Shown piece after piece: positions 1 to 8,328 of a stretch of DNA of 8,328 nt (positions are counted from its first letter, which is position 1; each line of letters begins with the position of its first letter). The notes beneath the pieces are model-generated. The model was not told the DNA's origin, made no database searches, and worked only from the letters and a program-made list of their open reading frames with translations. The translations under genes and the position numbers were made by a program. The stretch lies in assembly GCF_056712565.1 (NCBI RefSeq), contig NZ_JBWXXM010000005.1, one strand, 5' to 3'. This stretch comes from a plasmid.

Positions 1-486
1 ACCAAGAGGCACACCAACAATAAAACTAAACATTAATGCCACAATTTTTGCCACACCTACATCGACCGCACTTTTCTCCAGCGTGATAAACAAAGGTCGC
101 CAGTTACCAGTTTCTATTGCATTTTTAAAATCAGAACCAACATCATATAGAAAAGATACTCGACTGGTGATTTTAAGCGACTTTGATATCTTCGTTAAAT
201 TCTTAGATAACTCATCATAATTAACAGACTCTAACGCATTAAAAATAGCATCCCGATCAACCTTACTGAATTTCTTATCCAGTACATTCTTATACTTTTC
301 AAATGCTGCCAGAGCTTCATCAACACCTTGAATTTTCTTTCCTTTAGACTTTTCCGCTAAATCCTGAGCAATTTTTGCGTATTTTTCTCCATATTGTTCG
401 GTTATATATTGATAAAATCCAACCATAGTATCAACAGCATCTTTTATCTGGCTCTTTTCAAGAGCATCCTGAGCTTCTTTTAATTT
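1..486 (-). CDS. cka: Pore-forming (channel) domain segment of the colicin gene, open to the window start but out of frame with the upstream part; partial at window edge
   Basis: Reverse-complement translation in the frame whose codons occupy (3,2,1),(6,5,4)... is stop-free from 498 down to 1: [166 protein letters not shown]. This matches the colicin E1/Ia/K/5/10 channel domain as I recall it (not searched). That frame has a stop at 499..501, so it cannot join the upstream ORF without a 1-nt correction. Confidence 0.85.
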
Positions 487-1556
487 CTGCTCTGCCTCTT
501 AACCTCAGCGGCCTTACCATCCCTGAAACTAACAGCATTCTTAAGTTCATTTTCAACTGCGGAGTACTCAGCCTGCTTAGCTTCAAGCTGACGCTGTAGT
601 TTTTTCTGAACGTCACGCCATCCCGGAAATCCGGTGACCTTCACGTCAACACTCTTCTGAGCGTTTTCAAGCTCTCCTGCAACTCTGGAAACAGTAGCTT
701 GCTTACTCTGTACATCACTTTCAGCCTTCGCCAGTTCAGCTTTCGCCTCAGCTAAACGCTTCTCTGCTTCCGCCACCGCCTGTTTCTCTTCATTAAGAGT
801 TTCATGTTCAGCGACCTCTGCATTTTCACGAGCCTTTTCTTCAGCTTCCTTCTGTTTATTCACATCACCAATTTTACTTTGCAATGTATTTTTATAAGAA
901 TTAAGTTTGCTAATATCTGCATCAAGCTGATTTGATTTTTTTTGCAACTCATCAACATCCCTCTCAAGATCAGTGATACCATGATAAGAATGATGCTTGA
1001 ATACTTTTTTCATCTCCTCGATTTTCTTCTGTTTTTCACTAATCTGTGTAGCAATTTTATTCTTCTGCTTTTGTTTTTCATTAATTACATTACCCACCAC
1101 CTTCGAACTCTTATCCATATCACTGACCTGAGCATTCGTTGGTGCAGTATTAACTGAAGCAGTGTTATTGTTGTTATTTCCTGAGCTTTCTGCAAAAAGT
1201 GATGGCATATCACTAATTAAAGAATTAAGAACTCTGGAGACCCCTCCAAATGGATTATCAACCAGAGTTGAATTATCTTCTGTCATAACAATACCATTCA
1301 TCACCGGAAGGCCATCATTATTAATGACAACATCACCCCACGGAGTCAGATATGACTCACCGGTTTTCATCACAGTTGATGTAGAACCAGATGAATTTGA
1401 ATTTCCCTGACCACCATTATTACCATGCCCAGAGCCACCACCCCAGTGAACCCCACTATTACTATTATTATTTCCACCTTGCTGATTCAGATTCGCCCCT
1501 GTTCCCCCCATAGACTCACCAGCAGTTGGTCCATATCCACTTAGTTCTTTAGCCAT
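480..1556 (-). CDS. cka: Colicin, N-terminal translocation and central coiled-coil/receptor-binding part (358 codons), ending at a premature stop caused by a frameshift
   Basis: ORF track 480..1556 (-). Gly/Asn/Ser-rich N-terminus followed by [36 protein letters not shown]...[13 protein letters not shown], which closely resembles my recollection of the colicin A Tol-dependent translocation domain ([38 protein letters not shown]...RVLNSLV). A long K/E/A-rich coiled-coil follows. SD-like AGAGGA lies 7 nt upstream of the ATG (minus strand, + coords 1563..1568). Assignment to colicin K specifically is circumstantial: total length would be about 548 codons if the frameshift were repaired, and the immunity protein is 96 aa. 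Confidence 0.92.
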
Positions 1557-1600: not shown

Positions 1601-1631
1601 CTGTACATATAACCACTGGTTTTATGTACAG
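1601..1631 (-). promoter_or_regulatory. Tandem overlapping LexA boxes (SOS operator) of the colicin promoter
   Basis: Minus-strand sequence CTGTACATAAAACCAGTGGTTATATGTACAG contains two overlapping CTGT-N8-(A/C)CAG motifs, the double SOS box typical of colicin promoters. It lies about 45 bp upstream of the colicin ATG. A candidate -35 TTGACA is at 1659..1664 (minus strand). Confidence 0.85.
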
Positions 1632-1796
1632 TAAAAACCTACTACTCAGCATTGTCCATGTCAAGAGCATGGATTTTCATTTTTGCAATAAGGATCACAC
1701 TATGGGGAGGCAGGCATTGAGAACGTCGAAACAGAACACCGGAGCAAATCAGGATGAGATATAAAACTGTTGGATCATGAAAAAACGGAGAACGAT

Positions 1797-2087
1797 GTGA
1801 GCAAATCACCCCGCCATAAACTGAACAAAACAGACAAACGACTTCTCGACACCCTTGTTGCTGCCGGATATGAGCATGACAAAGCCCGTGACCTCATCCA
1901 GAAACAGGTTTACACGCTGACACTGGCTGATCAGCGTCATGTGGTCAGTGAAATCAGTAATGGTGTGAATCCCACCCAGGCTTACTCGGCGGTATACCAG
2001 GCAAGACGCATTCGCCTCGCCCGTAAATATCTGAACGGTAAAAAGGTTATGGAAGAAACCGGGGAAAATACGCCCCCATCAGCGTAA
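1797..2087 (+). CDS. Hypothetical small basic protein (96 aa from GTG 1797; 105 aa if TTG 1770 is used)
   Basis: ORF track 1770..2087 (+). There is no in-frame ATG near the 5' end; GTG at 1797 is preceded by GGAG (1788..1791) at good spacing. The product is hydrophilic and basic (VSKSPRHKLNKTDKRLLDTLVAAGYEHDKARDLI...). I do not recognise a family and it could be non-coding. Confidence 0.25.
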   Translation: MSKSPRHKLNKTDKRLLDTLVAAGYEHDKARDLIQKQVYTLTLADQRHVVSEISNGVNPTQAYSAVYQARRIRLARKYLNGKKVMEETGENTPPSA

Positions 2088-2357
2088 GGATTTCTTTTGC
2101 CGCTCCAGAGACTCCAGTTTTTTACGCAAATCCTCTCTTTTTTGGGCATCTCTGGTGCCAGCCAGCTCTGCTCTCAACTCATCGATCTGAAGTTGTATCT
2201 TCAGTCTGTTACTGAACATTTTCTGTCTGGCATTAACATCCGCAACAATGCCGTTTTTTGTCTTCTCGGCCTTTTGTTGAAAAACATTGCTGTCCGCATG
2301 ACTGGCAACCGAAGCAGAAAGAACACTAAAAAGCAGGACTGGCACACATTTTTTCAC
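2079..2357 (-). CDS. Small secreted/periplasmic protein with Sec signal peptide (92 aa, GTG start); candidate entry-exclusion or envelope protein
   Basis: ORF track 2079..2357 (-). N-terminus MKKCVPVLLFSVLSASVASHA/DSNVF has the n-, h- and c-regions of a signal peptide with an A-x-A-type cleavage site. The ~71-aa mature part is highly charged and helical. GTG start with AGGA about 9 nt upstream. The opposite-strand ORF 2097..2402 looks like antisense noise. Confidence 0.45.
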   Translation of the reverse strand: MKKCVPVLLFSVLSASVASHADSNVFQQKAEKTKNGIVADVNARQKMFSNRLKIQLQIDELRAELAGTRDAQKREDLRKKLESLERQKKSLR

Positions 2358-2478
2358 GGGATTATTCCTGACTCATTGACCATCAAATCACATTGGGAGT
2401 AAACCGACGTATGATAAGAGATACTCTTCGGAGATATAACTCCCTGAGTATCAAGATTAAAAACGCAAGGAGATGTTT

Positions 2479-2901
2479 ATGAGATCTGCCGCTGCCAGGC
2501 TGCTTCTGATACCTCTGATAACAGCAACAATAGCTCTTACAGGATGCACACCAAAGACCAGCCTGGAACGACATACCCGGCATTATGTTTATGCTTCAGA
2601 TGATGGATTTGATCCTAACTTCTACACCCAGAAAGCAGACACCATACGTATGATGCTCCCGTTCTTTCAGCAGTTCCGGGATATGGGGATGAAAGACAAA
2701 GCAGCCGGAGTATCAGCAGAAACGGCACAGCAACGTGTAAAAGAATTCCACTCAGAAAAATTTTTTCACTCACTCCGGAGCACAACAGCCTTTGCTGGCA
2801 GAAAATACACAAACAGCGATATGCCTTCGCCGAAAAAAATGAAACTAATGGCAGACACCATTTCTGCGGTTTATCTCGATGGATACGAGGGCAGACAGTA
2901 A
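2479..2901 (+). CDS. Lipoprotein (140 aa), possible entry-exclusion-type protein of ColE1-like plasmids
   Basis: ORF track 2473..2901; I prefer ATG 2479 because the SD AAGGA (2467..2471) is 7 nt upstream. N-terminus MRSAAARLLLIPLITATIALTGC is a signal peptide ending in the lipobox L-T-G-C. The position between colicin promoter and mob genes is where ColE1 carries exc genes as I remember it; homology was not verified. Confidence 0.65.
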   Translation: MRSAAARLLLIPLITATIALTGCTPKTSLERHTRHYVYASDDGFDPNFYTQKADTIRMMLPFFQQFRDMGMKDKAAGVSAETAQQRVKEFHSEKFFHSLRSTTAFAGRKYTNSDMPSPKKMKLMADTISAVYLDGYEGRQ

Positions 2902-3274
2902 GGGATTTACCATAATCCCTTAATTGTACGCACCGCTGAAATGCGTTCAGCGCGATCACGGCTGCTGACAGGTAAAAATGGCAACAAACCACCCGAAAAG
3001 CTGCCGCGATCGCACCTGATAAATTTTAACCGTATGCATAGCTATTCAGCCATGTGAATAACGCTGGTTTTGCCTGCGTAAACCTCATGACACTGTTTTT
3101 TTTCCATCTTTTCAGTTGATGACATACGCAGACATCGCGGGATGAGGCTGAGGAATGAGCGCGATCTGGCAAAGAGGCAAAACACAGCAACAAAAACGAC
3201 ACGCCAGAATCGCGCCCGGATGCGTTTTTAACGCGTTCCGGTACCATCTGGCAACCTCCCGGAACAACTCACCG

Positions 3275-4873
3275 TCACATCCCTATTGACGGGCCACGCC
3301 ATACCCGTGCTTCCCGTTCCTGCTCTTCATGCCAGGACCGCGCACGCTCCCGTTCCAGGCGTGCCTGCCTTTCCTGTTCATCCCTTATCTGCTGTTCGTG
3401 ATAAATAACCGACTCAAGTGGTCCACCTGCCCGGCTAATCTCTGCACCTGCTGACTCAAGTCGTCGCACTGTTCCCTCAGTTGCCCGTTCTCCTGTCGTG
3501 TCAGCTCGAACATATGCTGCAAATCCGTGAAGGCGCTCTCCCAGTCTTTCAGCCGCTGCGTATAGTCCTGCTGCAATTGCTCTAAGGCGTTCAGTAAGTG
3601 CATTTCCAGCTCTGTCATACTCACTTACTCCCTGACCAGTCTTACTGCGTTCTTCTTCTCCACCGTCCAGTTGTTTTCCCCCTTCACCCCGGACGGCAAC
3701 ACCAGAAATTTCCCGTTCCTGCCCTCGTGATACGTCACACCCCATGTTTTTTCCCGGAGTTTCGCCAGCGTCTCTTCCTGGTCCCTGATAGCCAGGATGT
3801 TCGCCGCAATCCGGCTTTCCTGCCACTGAATCAGCCCCCATGACGCCAGAAAAATCCCGCCCGTGACGCAAAGCGCCGTCAGCGACGGGTACAGTATCCG
3901 CCCTTTGACCAGCTTCCAGAGCAGCTCTTCCTGCCGCCGGGCCAGTTCGTTCTCTGTGGCGCTGAACTGCGCGTTCACGGCACTGTTCAGCGTCTCCAGT
4001 TGTTCTTTCACCGCTGCTGTGTGTGCGCTGATAGCGTCTCTGATTTTCTGCCCGTTTAAGTTCAGTTCCCTGTCTACAGACGCTTCGAGCTTCCTGAACT
4101 CGCTGTTCAGCATGTTCTCTGTAGAGACGGCACGCTCTTTCAGTTTCTTCTCGAAGTCTGTCCCCATTTGTAAAAGATTGCTCATACAGCGCCCCTTTCA
4201 GCCTGAGATTACGCCCACCCTCCGGGTCGGCGATACTGATACTGCTCCTGGTTGTCCTCACAACCTCAAAACCTGCCGCTGTAAGCGCCTCAGTGACATC
4301 CTGACGCGTTTTTAGCGCTCCGGCATGGTAAAGAGCCTCCAGTCCCCTCGTAATCGCTTCTGCGGCCTCCTGTTTCGCTTTCGGCAGATTATTCGGGGTG
4401 ACAAGTGTCCGCCTGTTCTCCGGTGCGTTCGGGTCGTGCAGCCCGTAATGGTGATTCACCAGTGTCTGCCAGGCATTGATTCGCGGACGGTCCGCTCGGT
4501 CGTAATAGGGCTGGAGCCGTTTTCCGCTCGCCAGCTCCATATTCGGGATGACAAAATTCAGCTCAAGACGCCCCTTGTCCTGGTGCTCCACCCACAGGAT
4601 GCTGTACTGATTTTTTTCAAGACCGGGCATCAGTACCCGCTCAAAGCTCTCCATCACCCTTTCACGCTCTCCCGGTGGCAGGGTCTGCTCTGCAAAAGAC
4701 AGAACCCCCGAGGTGTATTTTTTCGCAAACGGCGTGGCATCGATGAGTTCCCGCACCTCTTCGGGAGCACCCCGCAGAACTCTCGCCCCTTCCCGGTTAC
4801 GCTCCCGGCCCAGCAGGTAATCAACCGGACCACTGCCACCGCCTTTTCCCCTGGCATGAAACTTAACTATCAT
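3275..4873 (-). CDS. mbeA: Mobilization relaxase MbeA (ColE1-type, MOB HEN family)
   Basis: ORF track 3275..4900 (-). From the internal Met it reads MIVKFHARGKGGGSGPVDYLLGRERNREGA...ILWVEHQDKGRLELNFVIPNMEL...QPYYDRADRPRINAWQ, matching ColE1 MbeA as I recall it. The ATG at 4873..4871 overlaps the mbeC stop in the usual coupled arrangement. The compositionally odd C-terminal half fits mbeB and mbeD being encoded in other frames. Confidence 0.92.
   Translation of the reverse strand: MIVKFHARGKGGGSGPVDYLLGRERNREGARVLRGAPEEVRELIDATPFAKKYTSGVLSFAEQTLPPGERERVMESFERVLMPGLEKNQYSILWVEHQDKGRLELNFVIPNMELASGKRLQPYYDRADRPRINAWQTLVNHHYGLHDPNAPENRRTLVTPNNLPKAKQEAAEAITRGLEALYHAGALKTRQDVTEALTAAGFEVVRTTRSSISIADPEGGRNLRLKGALYEQSFTNGDRLREETERACRLYREHAEQRVQEARSVCRQGTELKRAENQRRYQRTHSSGERTTGDAEQCRERAVQRHRERTGPAAGRAALEAGQRADTVPVADGALRHGRDFSGVMGADSVAGKPDCGEHPGYQGPGRDAGETPGKNMGCDVSRGQEREISGVAVRGEGGKQLDGGEEERSKTGQGVSEYDRAGNALTERLRAIAAGLYAAAERLGERLHGFAAYVRADTTGERATEGTVRRLESAGAEISRAGGPLESVIYHEQQIRDEQERQARLERERARSWHEEQEREARVWRGPSIGM
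3385..3618 (-). CDS. mbeD: Mobilization protein MbeD, nested within the 3' part of mbeA in another frame
   Basis: ORF track 3385..3624 (-), product M(S)MTELEMHLLNALEQLQQDYTQRLKDWESAFTDLQHMFELTRQENGQLREQCDDLSQQVQRLAGQVDHLSRLF. ATG at 3618 with GGGAG upstream; an alternative GTG at 3624 abuts the mbeB stop. Confidence 0.75.
   Translation of the reverse strand: MTELEMHLLNALEQLQQDYTQRLKDWESAFTDLQHMFELTRQENGQLREQCDDLSQQVQRLAGQVDHLSRLFITNSR
3625..4185 (-). CDS. mbeB: Mobilization protein MbeB, nested within mbeA in another frame
   Basis: ORF track 3625..4185 (-), product MSNLLQMGTDFEKKLKERAVSTENMLNSEFRKLEASVDREL... with a hydrophobic segment (LYPSLTALCVTGGIFLASWGLI). SD-like AAAGGGG upstream of the ATG. 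The stop abuts the mbeD start. Confidence 0.8.
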   Translation of the reverse strand: MSNLLQMGTDFEKKLKERAVSTENMLNSEFRKLEASVDRELNLNGQKIRDAISAHTAAVKEQLETLNSAVNAQFSATENELARRQEELLWKLVKGRILYPSLTALCVTGGIFLASWGLIQWQESRIAANILAIRDQEETLAKLREKTWGVTYHEGRNGKFLVLPSGVKGENNWTVEKKNAVRLVRE

Positions 4874-5210
4874 CCCGTTCTCCCTGTTTACGGACCTCAT
4901 CCCTCAGCTCACTCAGTTCACGTCCGATGGCCATCAGTGCAGCCACCACATGAACCCGGTCATGCCCCGACCACTGTCCGCTGTTTATCTTCCGGGCTAT
5001 CTGATTCAGGTTATTGCCGACCGAAGCGAACTGGCGCAACAGCGGCGGTGCCAGTGTCGGAAGACCTGACGTTTTCGATGGCGGTGCCCCCAGGCAGACC
5101 TTACGCATCCATGACGCAAGTTGTTTTCCCTCACAACGTGCCAGCAGCCGCGCATGTTCCTCATCCGTGACCCGTATCGTGAGCATCCTTTCGCGTTTCA
5201 CCGGTATCAT
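4863..5210 (-). CDS. mbeC: Mobilization accessory protein MbeC (relaxosome component)
   Basis: ORF track 4863..5363 (-). The conserved part MLTIRVTDEEHARLLARCEGKQLASWMRKVCLG...LAPPLLRQFASVGNNLNQIARKINSG...HVVAALMAIGRELSELR matches ColE1 MbeC/MobC as I recall it. Start chosen at ATG 5210 (GGAGG 7 nt upstream); ATG 5186 is an alternative. The first 52 codons of the track ORF are treated as spurious. Confidence 0.85.
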   Translation of the reverse strand: MIPVKRERMLTIRVTDEEHARLLARCEGKQLASWMRKVCLGAPPSKTSGLPTLAPPLLRQFASVGNNLNQIARKINSGQWSGHDRVHVVAALMAIGRELSELRDEVRKQGERDDS

Positions 5211-5253
5211 TAAAAACCTCCGACAGACTCCCCACACATGGAGAAACAGAACT

Positions 5254-5445
5254 GTGACTAAACAGGAAAAAACCGCCCTTAACATGGCCCGCTTCATCAG
5301 AAGCCAGACGCTGACCCTGCTGGAAAAACTGAATGAACTGGACGCCGACGACCAGGCTGACATCTGCGAAGCGCTTCACGACCACGCTGACGAGCTTTAC
5401 CGCAGCTGCCTCGCACGCTTCGGAGATGACGGTGAAAACCTCTGA
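5254..5445 (+). CDS. rop: Rop/Rom RNA one modulator protein (63 aa, GTG start)
   Basis: VTKQEKTALNMARFIRSQTLTLLEKLNELDADDQADICEALHDHADELYRSCLARFGDDGENL is near-identical to ColE1/pMB1 Rop as I recall it. GTG start at 5254 with GGAG about 10 nt upstream. The ORF-track entry 5014..5445 is an in-frame upstream extension with no support. Confidence 0.93.
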   Translation: MTKQEKTALNMARFIRSQTLTLLEKLNELDADDQADICEALHDHADELYRSCLARFGDDGENL

Positions 5446-6402: not shown

Positions 6403-6432
6403 AGATTACGCGCAGAAAAAAAGGATCTCAAG
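6403..6432 (-). promoter_or_regulatory. RNAII promoter (-35 TTGAGA, -10 TAATCT on minus strand)
   Basis: Minus-strand sequence cttcTTGAGAtcctttttttctgcgcgTAATCTgctgcctGTAAAC has a 17-nt spacer and matches the pMB1 RNAII promoter as I recall it. Confidence 0.7.
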
Positions 6433-6454
6433 AAGATCCTTTGATCTTTTCTAC

Positions 6455-6459
6455 TGAAC
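6455..6459. repeat. IS2 target-site duplication (TGAAC), right-end copy
   Basis: TGAAC immediately outside the IS2 end at 6460; an identical TGAAC lies at 7791..7795 outside the other end. IS2 is known to make 5-bp duplications. Confidence 0.85.
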
Positions 6460-6500
6460 TGGATTTGCCCCTATATTTCCAGACACCTGTTATCACTTAA
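6460..6500. repeat. IS2 terminal inverted repeat (IRR)
   Basis: Imperfect inverted repeat partner of 7749..7790; shared core CCAGACA...ATATCACTTA. Confidence 0.8.
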
Positions 6501-7376
6501 CCCATTACTGGCTTGCTGCCGTAGATATTCCCGTGGCGAGCGATAACCCAGTGCACTATGCGGATGCCATTCGTTATAATGCTCGAACGCCTCTGCAAGG
6601 TTCTTTGCTGCCGTTAACCCGTCTGGTTTGGGCATGACACTGATGTAGTCACGCTTTATCGTTTTCACGAAGCTCTCTGCTATGCCGTTACTCTCCGGAC
6701 TCCGCACCGCCGTGCTCTTCGGTTCAAGCCCCAACATCCGGGCAAACTGCCGTGTTTCATTAGCCCGGTAGCATGAACCATTATCCGTCAGCCACTCTAC
6801 TGGAGACGCCGGAAGCTCGTTGCCGAAGCGGCGTTCCACCGCTCCCAGCATGACGTCCTGTACTGTTTCACTGTTGAAGCCGCCCGTAGTGACCGCCCAG
6901 TGCAGTGCCTCACGGTCACAGCAGTCCAGCGCGAACGTGACTCGCAGTTTTTCTCCGTTATCACAGCGGAACTCGAACCCGTCAGAGCACCATCGCTGAT
7001 TACTTTCTTTCACAGCCACTCTGCCTGTATGTGCCCGTTTCGATGGCGGTACAGCAGGTTTTCGCTCAAGCAACAGCGCATTCTGGCGCATGATCCGGTA
7101 AACACGTTTGGCATTGATCGCAGGCATACCATCAAGTTCTGCCTGTCTGCGAAGCAGCGCCCATACCCGACGATAACCATACGTGGGCAGCTCTCCGATA
7201 ACATGGTGTATACGGAGAAGCACATCCGTATCATCAGTGTGACGACTGCGGCGGCCATCCATCCAGTCATCGGTTCGTCTGAGAATGACGTGCAACTGCG
7301 CACGCGACACCCGGAGACAACGGCTGACTAAGCTTACTCCCCATCCCCGGGCAATAAGGGCGCGTGCGCTATCCAC
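6471..7376 (-). CDS. insD: IS2 transposase OrfB (InsD), normally expressed as an OrfAB fusion by -1 frameshifting
   Basis: ORF track 6471..7376 (-) 301 aa, (M/V)[33 protein letters not shown]...[12 protein letters not shown]... with a DDE-type integrase core (...[37 protein letters not shown]...). The first codon is GTG and overlaps the end of insC. Confidence 0.95.
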
Positions 7377-7699
7377 TTTTTTGCCCGTCCATATTCAACG
7401 GCTTCTTTGAGGAGTTCATTTTCCATCGTTTTCTTGCCGAGCAGGCGCTGGAGTTCTTTAATCTGCTTCATGGCGGCAGCAAGTTCAGAGGCAGGAACAA
7501 CCTGTTCTCCGGCGGCGACAGCAGTAAGACTTCCTTCCTGGTATTGCTTACGCCAGAGAAATAACTGGCTGGCTGCTACACCATGTTGCCGGGCAACGAG
7601 GGAGACCGTCATCCCTGGTTCAAAGCTCTGCTGAACAATTGCGATCTTTTCCTGTGTGGTACGCCGTCTGCGTTTCTCCGGTCCTAAGACATCAATCAT
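7334..7699 (-). CDS. insC: IS2 OrfA (InsC), helix-turn-helix regulator / N-terminal part of the transposase
   Basis: From ATG at 7699: [58 protein letters not shown]...[26 protein letters not shown]. The 15 extra N-terminal codons in the track ORF 7334..7744 are rejected. Confidence 0.93.
7377..7383 (-). other. IS2 programmed -1 ribosomal frameshift heptamer (A AAA AAG) at the insC/insD overlap
   Basis: Minus-strand sequence ggcA AAA AAG tgg is in the OrfA zero frame. A -1 slip reads AAA AAA GTG GAT AGC = KKVDS..., continuing into InsD. This is a known IS3-family mechanism. Confidence 0.7.
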
Positions 7700-7748
7700 C
7701 TGCTCTCCAATGACTAGTCTAAAAACTAGTATTAAGACTATCACTTAA

Positions 7749-7790
7749 ATAAGTGATATTGGTTGTCTGGAGATTCAGGGGGCCAGTCTA
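7749..7790. repeat. IS2 terminal inverted repeat (IRL)
   Basis: Reverse complement from 7790 reads TAGACTGGCCCCCTGAATCTCCAGACAACCAATATCACTTA... The lysis-gene reading frame terminates inside this repeat at TGA 7775..7777. Confidence 0.8.
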
Positions 7791-7918
7791 TGAACCGCGA
7801 TCCCCGTCAGTTCAGAAGACGAAGATGGTGCAACGGTTCCTCCTTGTACATCACGAATATAGTTTGCTTGACATCCTGACAAGAATAATATTGTAATTAG
7901 AAAAATTATTATTTTCAT
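7775..7918 (-). CDS. ckl: Colicin lysis (bacteriocin release) lipoprotein, with its 3' end altered by the IS2 insertion (47 codons; ends ...GIAV-HRLAP)
   Basis: Not in the ORF track (short). Reverse complement of 7793..7918 translates [42 protein letters not shown], with signal peptide, lipobox L-S-G-C and the [14 protein letters not shown] motif typical of colicin lysis proteins. Reading continues across the TSD into the IS2 IRL (H R L A P, stop TGA at 7775..7777). The displaced native end (Q codon and TAG) lies at 6451..6456 on the other side of IS2. Confidence 0.8.
7791..7795. repeat. IS2 target-site duplication (TGAAC), left-end copy
   Basis: TGAAC directly abutting the IS2 end at 7790; identical to 6455..6459. 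Confidence 0.85.
7868..7897 (+). promoter_or_regulatory. Candidate immunity-gene promoter located inside the lysis-gene coding region
   Basis: TTGACA at 7868..7873, an 18-nt spacer, TGTAAT at 7892..7897, about 50 bp upstream of the immunity ATG at 7948. Confidence 0.4.
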
Positions 7919-7947: not shown

Positions 7948-8238
7948 ATGCATTTAAAATACTACCTACATAATTTACCTGAATCACTTATACCATGGAT
8001 TCTTATTTTAATATTTAACGACAATGATAACACTCCTTTGTTATTTATATTTATATCATCAATACATGTATTGCTATATCCATACTCTAAATTAACCATA
8101 TCTAGATATATCAAAGAAAATACAAAGTTAAAAAAAGAACCCTGGTACTTATGCAAGTTATCTGCATTGTTTTATTTATTAATGGCAATCCCAGTAGGAT
8201 TGCCAAGTTTCATATATTACACTCTAAAGAGAAATTAA
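7948..8238 (+). CDS. cki: Pore-forming colicin immunity protein (96 aa, integral inner-membrane protein)
   Basis: ORF track 7948..8238 (+). Very AT-rich and hydrophobic (…[33 protein letters not shown]…[26 protein letters not shown]), consistent with several membrane spans. It is convergent with the colicin gene and sits between colicin and lysis genes on the opposite strand, the canonical arrangement for pore-former immunity genes. Its stop (8236..8238) overlaps the colicin stop (8235..8237). Confidence 0.8.
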
Positions 8239-8328
8239 ATCCCTAACAACTCATTAAGTTTGCTCAACTCATCATCCCCTATGTAAGAAGAAACAATACC
8301 TGTGACAATTGCAATCCCCCAGAAACCA
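8235..8328 (-). CDS. cka: C-terminal tail of the colicin gene (last 29 codons plus stop), continuing from the window start across the circular junction
   Basis: Reverse complement of 8235..8327 translates [30 protein letters not shown]-stop, the end of the hydrophobic hairpin and C-terminus of a pore-forming colicin. The stop TAA is the reverse complement of 8235..8237. Window 8325..8328 (acca) equals window 1..4 (acca), and joining 8324 to 1 gives a continuous ...[15 protein letters not shown]... reading frame. Confidence 0.75.

Follow-up and report, generated by a model that had tools for sequence, protein, structure and literature searches.

Gene content of the colicin K plasmid

The window, i.e., the whole stretch of 8328 nucleotides that was analysed, represents a complete circular colicin K plasmid. 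This is a small ColE1-type plasmid of Escherichia coli, which carries the colicin and lysis genes (cka-ckl) on one strand and the immunity gene cki on the opposite strand. The window shares 99.4% identity with pColK-K235 (NC_006881.1) across its full length, and 99.8-100% identity with the backbone of approximately 25 IS-free ColK plasmids of 6988 nt, while a record identical to it was found neither in PLSDB nor among the RefSeq complete E. coli genomes. The features that are relevant for the colicin locus are the following.

5 to 1556, minus strand: cka from its ATG at 1556, with the pore domain from about 490 down to 5 (Pfam, references)
480 to 482, minus strand: premature stop of the frame that starts at ATG 1556, giving a 358-aa product without the pore domain
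About 498 to 501, minus strand: 1-nt deletion in cka, TTT/AAA in the reference and TT/AA in the window (alignment with references)
1616 to 1664, minus strand: cka promoter region, with TTGACA at 1664-1659, TAGGTT at 1641-1636 and the LexA-box-like CTGTACATAAAACCAG at 1631-1616
6420 to 6442, minus strand: T2, a strong intrinsic terminator hairpin, directly 3' of ckl in intact plasmids
6460 to 7790, minus strand: IS2, 1331 bp long, flanked by a 5-bp target duplication (TGAAC, 6455-6459 and 7791-7795)
7775 to 7918, minus strand: ckl, lysis lipoprotein gene (PF02402, Lysis_col, E 3e-23)
7868 to 7897, plus strand: candidate cki promoter inside ckl, TTGACA (7868-7873)-N18-TGTAAT (7892-7897), read from the sequence
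7948 to 8238, plus strand: cki, colicin K immunity gene, 96 aa, intact (PF17500)
8183 to 8205, either strand: perfect inverted repeat TGGCAATCC-CAGTA-GGATTGCCA, 9 bp with a 5-nt loop, inside cki and 30 nt from the TTAA
8235 to 8238, either strand: TTAA tetramer with both stop codons (reading of the sequence; annotated identically in reference plasmids)
8235 to 8328, minus strand: 3'-terminal part of cka, its last 31 codons and one additional base (sequence, reference alignment)

The immunity open reading frame matches the CKI family (PF17500) at all of its 96 positions (1-96/96; E 9e-57) and is 100% identical to the reference cki, by which the gene between the colicin and lysis genes, on the opposite strand, is recognised as a member of the Cki family. 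The DNA of the colicin gene is 99.8% identical to annotated cka, and its reference-frame protein contains a C-terminal pore-forming domain, with PF01024 matching residues 364-545 of 548 (E 2e-31). The lysis lipoprotein gene follows downstream on the colicin strand, the last residue of its product being replaced by HRLAP.

The tetranucleotide ACCA at positions 1-4 is repeated at 8325-8328, which implies that the true circle measures 8324 nt. Relative to three reference cka genes, this end redundancy amounts to a 4-nt insertion at the circle junction; the duplication, left by linearising the circle, falls inside cka. Rebuilding cka by directly joining the ends of the window was tried and rejected, as it yielded 1650 nt with many in-frame stops, which are caused by the ACCA duplication at the junction together with the 1-nt deletion. 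The redundancy therefore must be collapsed, upon which the pore-domain frame runs into 8327..8235; for curation of the record, its removal is needed before genes are called across the junction.

The 1-nt deletion at approximately 498-501 places the pore domain out of frame with the cka ATG, and the frame from ATG 1556 consequently ends at 480-482 and never meets the TTAA. Among the PLSDB records, 37 match this part of cka and all 37 lack the deletion; the frameshift could be either a real inactivating mutation or an error of assembly or sequencing. Outside IS2, the backbone differs from that of CP054461.1 only by this deletion, a single-base insertion (2922) and one substitution (5125). The insertion (A to AA compared with CP054461.1) lies at the margin of a 9-bp inverted repeat (2899-2922), both lying just downstream of an exc2-like ORF, and relative to the nearest backbone the indels (2922 and the cka deletion) thus outnumber the substitutions.

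The final sense codon of ckl is interrupted by IS2, which has the orientation of the operon; as a result, the C-terminus of the lysis protein changes from ...AVQ* to ...AVHRLAP* (Q43-stop to HRLAP-stop) and ckl becomes separated from the T2 terminator. This IS2/ckl junction is absent from PLSDB and from the RefSeq complete E. coli genomes. Plasmid pColK-K235 also contains an IS2, located upstream of cka and 97.7% identical to the element in the window; the different sites and this level of identity indicate that the two insertions were independent.

Upstream of cka, the promoter hexamers were picked by eye. The LexA-box-like motif CTGT-N8-CCAG at 1631-1616 has one mismatch to the LexA core, and such motifs occur in the window no more often than expected by chance. 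Its position is one that we take to fit the published cka promoter. A terminator-like hairpin on the plus strand (GTCCATGTCAAGAGCATGGAT then TTTCATTTTT, 1654-1674) overlaps the cka -35 TTGACA, and could serve to stop transcripts crossing all of cka, whether cki-sense or other antisense ones.

The stop codons shared by cka and cki

The preliminary description placed the stop codon of the immunity gene at 8236..8238 and that of the colicin gene on the complement of 8235..8237, and concluded that the convergent genes overlap by 2 bp without a spacer. The TTAA read at 8235-8238 agrees with this in full: the cki stop TAA occupies 8236-8238 on the plus strand, and the native cka stop TAA, which follows ...ELLGI, is the complement of 8235-8237. 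The two stops have 2 nt (8236-8237) in common, and the coding sequences, stops counted, overlap by 4 nt (8235-8238). Tail-to-tail genes without a spacer are also what RefSeq annotates, with an identical 4-nt overlap. The use of a different colicin stop, raised earlier as a reason for doubt, is ruled out, since the alignment with reference cka and the PF01024 match end at this TAA; the extension of the latter to residue 545 of 548 identifies the TAA at 8237-8235 as the native end of the colicin. Both genes are thus genuine coding sequences on opposite strands that end within a single tetramer of the form (C/T)TA(A/G), and both ends are backed by full-length Pfam matches and by the annotation in 9 loci.

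The middle two bases of the TTAA belong to both stop codons. The outer two are free third positions, at which the alternatives are synonymous (Asn AAT/AAC and Ile ATT/ATC). To account for the persistence of the junction, purifying selection on both proteins is sufficient.

All nine loci sampled from the colicin K/5/10/E1 group have the 4-nt overlap, including those listed here.

pColK-K235, NC_006881.1: cka 2527 to 4173, cki complement of 4170 to 4460 (RefSeq annotation)
ColK plasmid CP054461.1: cki 3449 to 3739, cka complement of 3736 to 5382 (RefSeq annotation)
Colicin 10 locus: cti 2201 to 2491, cta complement of 2488 to 3960, 4-nt overlap annotated
Cki-family locus, immunity 61.5% identical: 4-nt overlap annotated
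K-like locus: 4-nt overlap annotated, tetramer CTAA
Colicin 5-like locus: 4-nt overlap annotated
Classical ColE1 (L008): imm 1414 to 1755, cea complement of 1752 to 3320, 4-nt overlap annotated
E1-like locus: 4-nt overlap annotated

Only the K-like locus departs from TTAA among these; its CTAA turns the colicin stop into TAG and the last immunity codon into AAC, which still encodes Asn. The immunity proteins of ColK and ColE1 share 28% identity, yet their C-termini align (ColE1 ...AIPFGLLG-LFISIKNN), indicating that the junction is older than the split of the families. Other loci for pore-forming colicins are convergent as well, but contain spacers of 13-27 nt between the two genes (FY, 13 nt; Ia, Ib and B, 17 nt each; R and Y, 27 nt each; Serratia, 16 nt; Mixta, 17 nt). 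Read from the sequence, the overlap is an inherited, compact junction rather than a chance event, and the shared stops have no demonstrated function of their own.

Transcription across the junction and the hairpin in cki

For colicin operons, the possibility that the immunity gene is transcribed in antisense and that convergent promoters interfere has been under discussion since the 1980s. To reach ckl, which is situated past cki on the colicin strand, the cka-ckl transcript has to cross all 291 nt of cki in antisense. The antisense overlap that had been deduced from the shared stops is therefore certain, but its cause is the layout of the operon and not the 2 nt that the stops have in common. 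For ionophoric colicins, the immunity gene is described as located on the opposite strand with its own promoter (review, PMC9517006). For colicin A, LexA repression of the colicin genes relieves interference on the convergent immunity gene, according to the account of Lloubes 1986 that is cited in PMC5001618. Interference between convergent promoters is thus established for this sister system and may occur in ColK too, in which the convergent promoter sequences are plausible and the order of the genes makes it inevitable that the transcripts cross.

The ATG codons of the divergent ckl (7918) and cki (7948) are 29 nt apart, and consequently the cki promoter must overlap ckl. The geometry fits the earlier proposal that the immunity promoter lies inside the lysis gene, and we infer the TTGACA/TGTAAT pair within ckl to be a candidate for this promoter. 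The K, 5, 10 and Cki-family loci all retain the pair, and ColE1 has CTGACA. Its -35 hexamer is opposite the Cys-Gln codons of the ckl lipobox; the conservation provides no independent evidence for a promoter, since it overlaps conserved lipobox codons that are under coding constraint. A scan for consensus promoters did not return the pair, due to the G at position 2 of the second hexamer.

On the plus strand, no canonical terminator follows the cki stop before the hairpin at 1654-1674, which is past the whole of cka. The plus-strand RNA beyond the cki stop is C-rich and G-poor (C/G ratio of 2-3). The combination of C-rich RNA and the lack of a canonical terminator makes a Rho-dependent end of the cki transcript inside the cka antisense region plausible. 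No bidirectional intrinsic terminator was found between the two stops, where there is no spacer, and the only stable local hairpin near the junction on either strand is the one at 8183-8205 inside cki.

This hairpin has no U-tract on the colicin strand, where such a tract is also absent in colicin 10 and E1, but it has a T-rich tail on the plus strand. A transcript stopping in this tail would end approximately 25 nt before the cki stop and would lose the last 5-8 codons and the stop. The window contains four perfect repeats of 9 bp with a 5-nt loop, versus 0.08 expected from shuffled sequences. The stem is conserved across K, 5, 10 and the 61%-identity relative, in contrast to the loop; in the latter locus the stem is the same as at 8183-8205, while the loop (CTATC) and the flanks vary. 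The homologous site in ColE1 is GTCCTAGCAATCC-AAATG-GGATTGCTAGGAC, whose combination of a 13-bp stem and a 5-nt loop is unique in that plasmid. This ColE1 repeat agrees with how the canonical 31-bp ColE1 cruciform has been described (PMC3105387). The repeat is located over the conserved AIPxGL motif of the immunity protein, its ColE1 counterpart being found in the region 1682-1712 of L008 (4919-4949 in a further record, L011). A compensatory difference is seen at one stem pair, with G-C in K versus A-T in E1. When the same peptides were recoded with synonymous codons, 0.1-0.8% of the trials attained the observed stem length for K, and no more than 0.004% did so for E1. Taken together, the conservation of the stem, the ColE1 homologue, the compensatory pair and the recoding result suggest maintenance of the repeat at the level of nucleic-acid structure.

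In the Ia, R, Y, B and FY loci, an inverted repeat covers the short spacer together with the 3' end of the immunity gene (1785-1808 in locus L012; 1804-1830 in L013 and L015; 1822-1838 in L014; approximately 1310-1350 in L010), from which a hairpin at the convergent junction seems general to operons of pore-forming colicins. Moreover, the immunity gene of a colicin 10 plasmid (L007, NZ_CP021102.1; approximately 1681-1972) is unannotated. Compared with locus L003, the 3' part of this gene carries C in place of A in the right hairpin arm and contains an additional T (GGATTGCCCAGTTTTCAT), and these differences suggest a frameshifted cti beside an intact cta.

The hairpin at 8183-8205 is the best candidate for a 3'-end signal near the junction, as judged from its sequence. 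Our best guess is that it would attenuate transcription or stabilise the 3' end of colicin-only RNA; as a second possibility, it might terminate only untranslated RNA in the cki direction. In the proposed sequence of events, which is built on gene order and candidate signals, a LexA-repressed promoter upstream of 1556 would drive minus-strand transcription through cka, the TTAA, cki in antisense and ckl, while a promoter in the 5' part of ckl would give a low, constitutive level of cki transcription. With no spacer present, the cki transcript would have to end inside the cka antisense region, likely by Rho acting on C-rich untranslated RNA, and colicin-only transcripts would probably end, or be stabilised, at the 8183-8205 hairpin. 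The convergent transcription units could then interfere mutually, as has been published for colicin A.

Interpretation and comparison with known systems

The reading that we consider very probable is that the TTAA is an inherited, compact tail-to-tail junction of the E1/K/5/10 group, and that any regulatory consequences come from the layout of the operon. That the overlap would be artefactual, through an incorrectly assumed circular junction or through miscalled stops, is highly improbable. Such an error could be suspected because plain end-to-end joining of the window puts four extra nucleotides (ACCA) into cka, but the TTAA is located 90 nt from the window end and the junction leaves both frames that surround it unaffected. 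Moreover, independent assemblies in which the region is unsplit give the same sequence and annotation, and full-length Pfam matches terminate at both stops, on which ground an annotation artefact was rejected. Another alternative, which we regard as possible but somewhat below even, is that the overlap is a relic in this particular plasmid: the colicin operon would be decaying, by the frameshift in cka and the IS2 in ckl, and the plasmid would supply immunity only. The stop at 480-482, created by the 1-nt deletion, precedes the pore domain, and IS2 is flanked by a true 5-bp target duplication, alters the C-terminus of the lysis protein and removes the terminator behind ckl, while cki is 100% identical to the reference. 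Neither the deletion nor the IS2 junction was found in any other record searched. However, the deletion concerns a single base lost from a 3-base run in a record that also has the 4-nt end redundancy and another single-base indel, a pattern that fits assembly error, and IS2 changes just the last residue of a lysis protein that may still work. If the cka deletion is real, only the immunity function is intact and the plasmid is predicted to confer immunity without producing colicin.

A further alternative holds that the junction without a spacer and the inverted repeat in the immunity gene together form a selected regulatory module, the hairpin being a 3'-end determinant shared by both transcripts. 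On the colicin strand, the hairpin would attenuate or stabilise the RNA and thereby set the colicin-to-lysis ratio, whereas in the immunity direction it would act as a terminator masked by the translating ribosome. The repeat is improbable from the protein sequence alone, its stem but not its loop is conserved in K, 5, 10 and the 61%-identity relative, and a stem pair is compensatory (G-C in K, A-T in E1); perfect inverted repeats at or adjoining the junction are present in the Ia, R, B and Y loci too, and a T-rich tail comes after the hairpin on the plus strand. Against this, the U-tract is missing from the colicin strand in ColK as it is in colicin 10 and E1, termination on the cki strand would cost the gene its last 5-8 codons and stop, and the covarying pairs amount to one only. 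In addition, the ColE1 version of the repeat is a known DNA cruciform, so that selection could act on DNA instead of RNA. On balance we regard a selected module as unlikely. The narrower proposal, that the inverted repeat, 23-30 nt from the junction, is under selection as a 3'-end element of both transcripts and on the immunity strand terminates only when no ribosomes follow, appears more doubtful still; if true, it would give the ColE1 cruciform sequence a physiological role.

The inherited, compact junction thus remains the preferred reading, and by itself it matters little: it is a textbook-style convergent overlap that is ordinary and already known, as it is annotated in public records and common to colicin K, 5, 10 and E1 plasmids. 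The value of the present record is rather in its curation, since the colicin gene is frameshifted and the lysis gene carries an IS2, by which the plasmid may be an immunity-only derivative.

Among prokaryotic genes in general, overlaps of 4 bp (CTAA, TTAA, CTAG or TTAG) form the commonest type of convergent overlap (Lillo and Krakauer 2007, PMC2174442), and the terminators of such gene pairs must be situated within a coding sequence (PMC2174442). The TTAA of ColK is an ordinary member of this class, from which it does not differ. Plasmid pColK-K235 and approximately 35 other ColK plasmids in PLSDB have the same junction, cki sequence, gene order, strands and 4-nt annotation as the window; pColK-K235 differs in lacking the 1-nt deletion in cka and in having its IS2 upstream of cka, whereas the IS2 in the window is in the last ckl codon. 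The cea-imm-kil locus of ColE1 resembles that of ColK in having a convergent immunity gene between the colicin and lysis genes and in the shared TTAA, but its divergent start codons are 47 nt apart versus 29 nt in ColK, and the homologous repeat, which in both plasmids lies over the immunity AIPxGL motif, measures 13 bp versus 9 bp. The caa-cai-cal locus of colicin A has an SOS-controlled colicin-lysis operon running antisense through a constitutive immunity gene, as is predicted for ColK from its layout. Its immunity protein belongs to the A-type family, unlike that of ColK, and the other pore-forming colicin loci that were sampled (B, R, Y, Ia, Ib and FY) possess spacers of 13-27 nt in place of an overlap.
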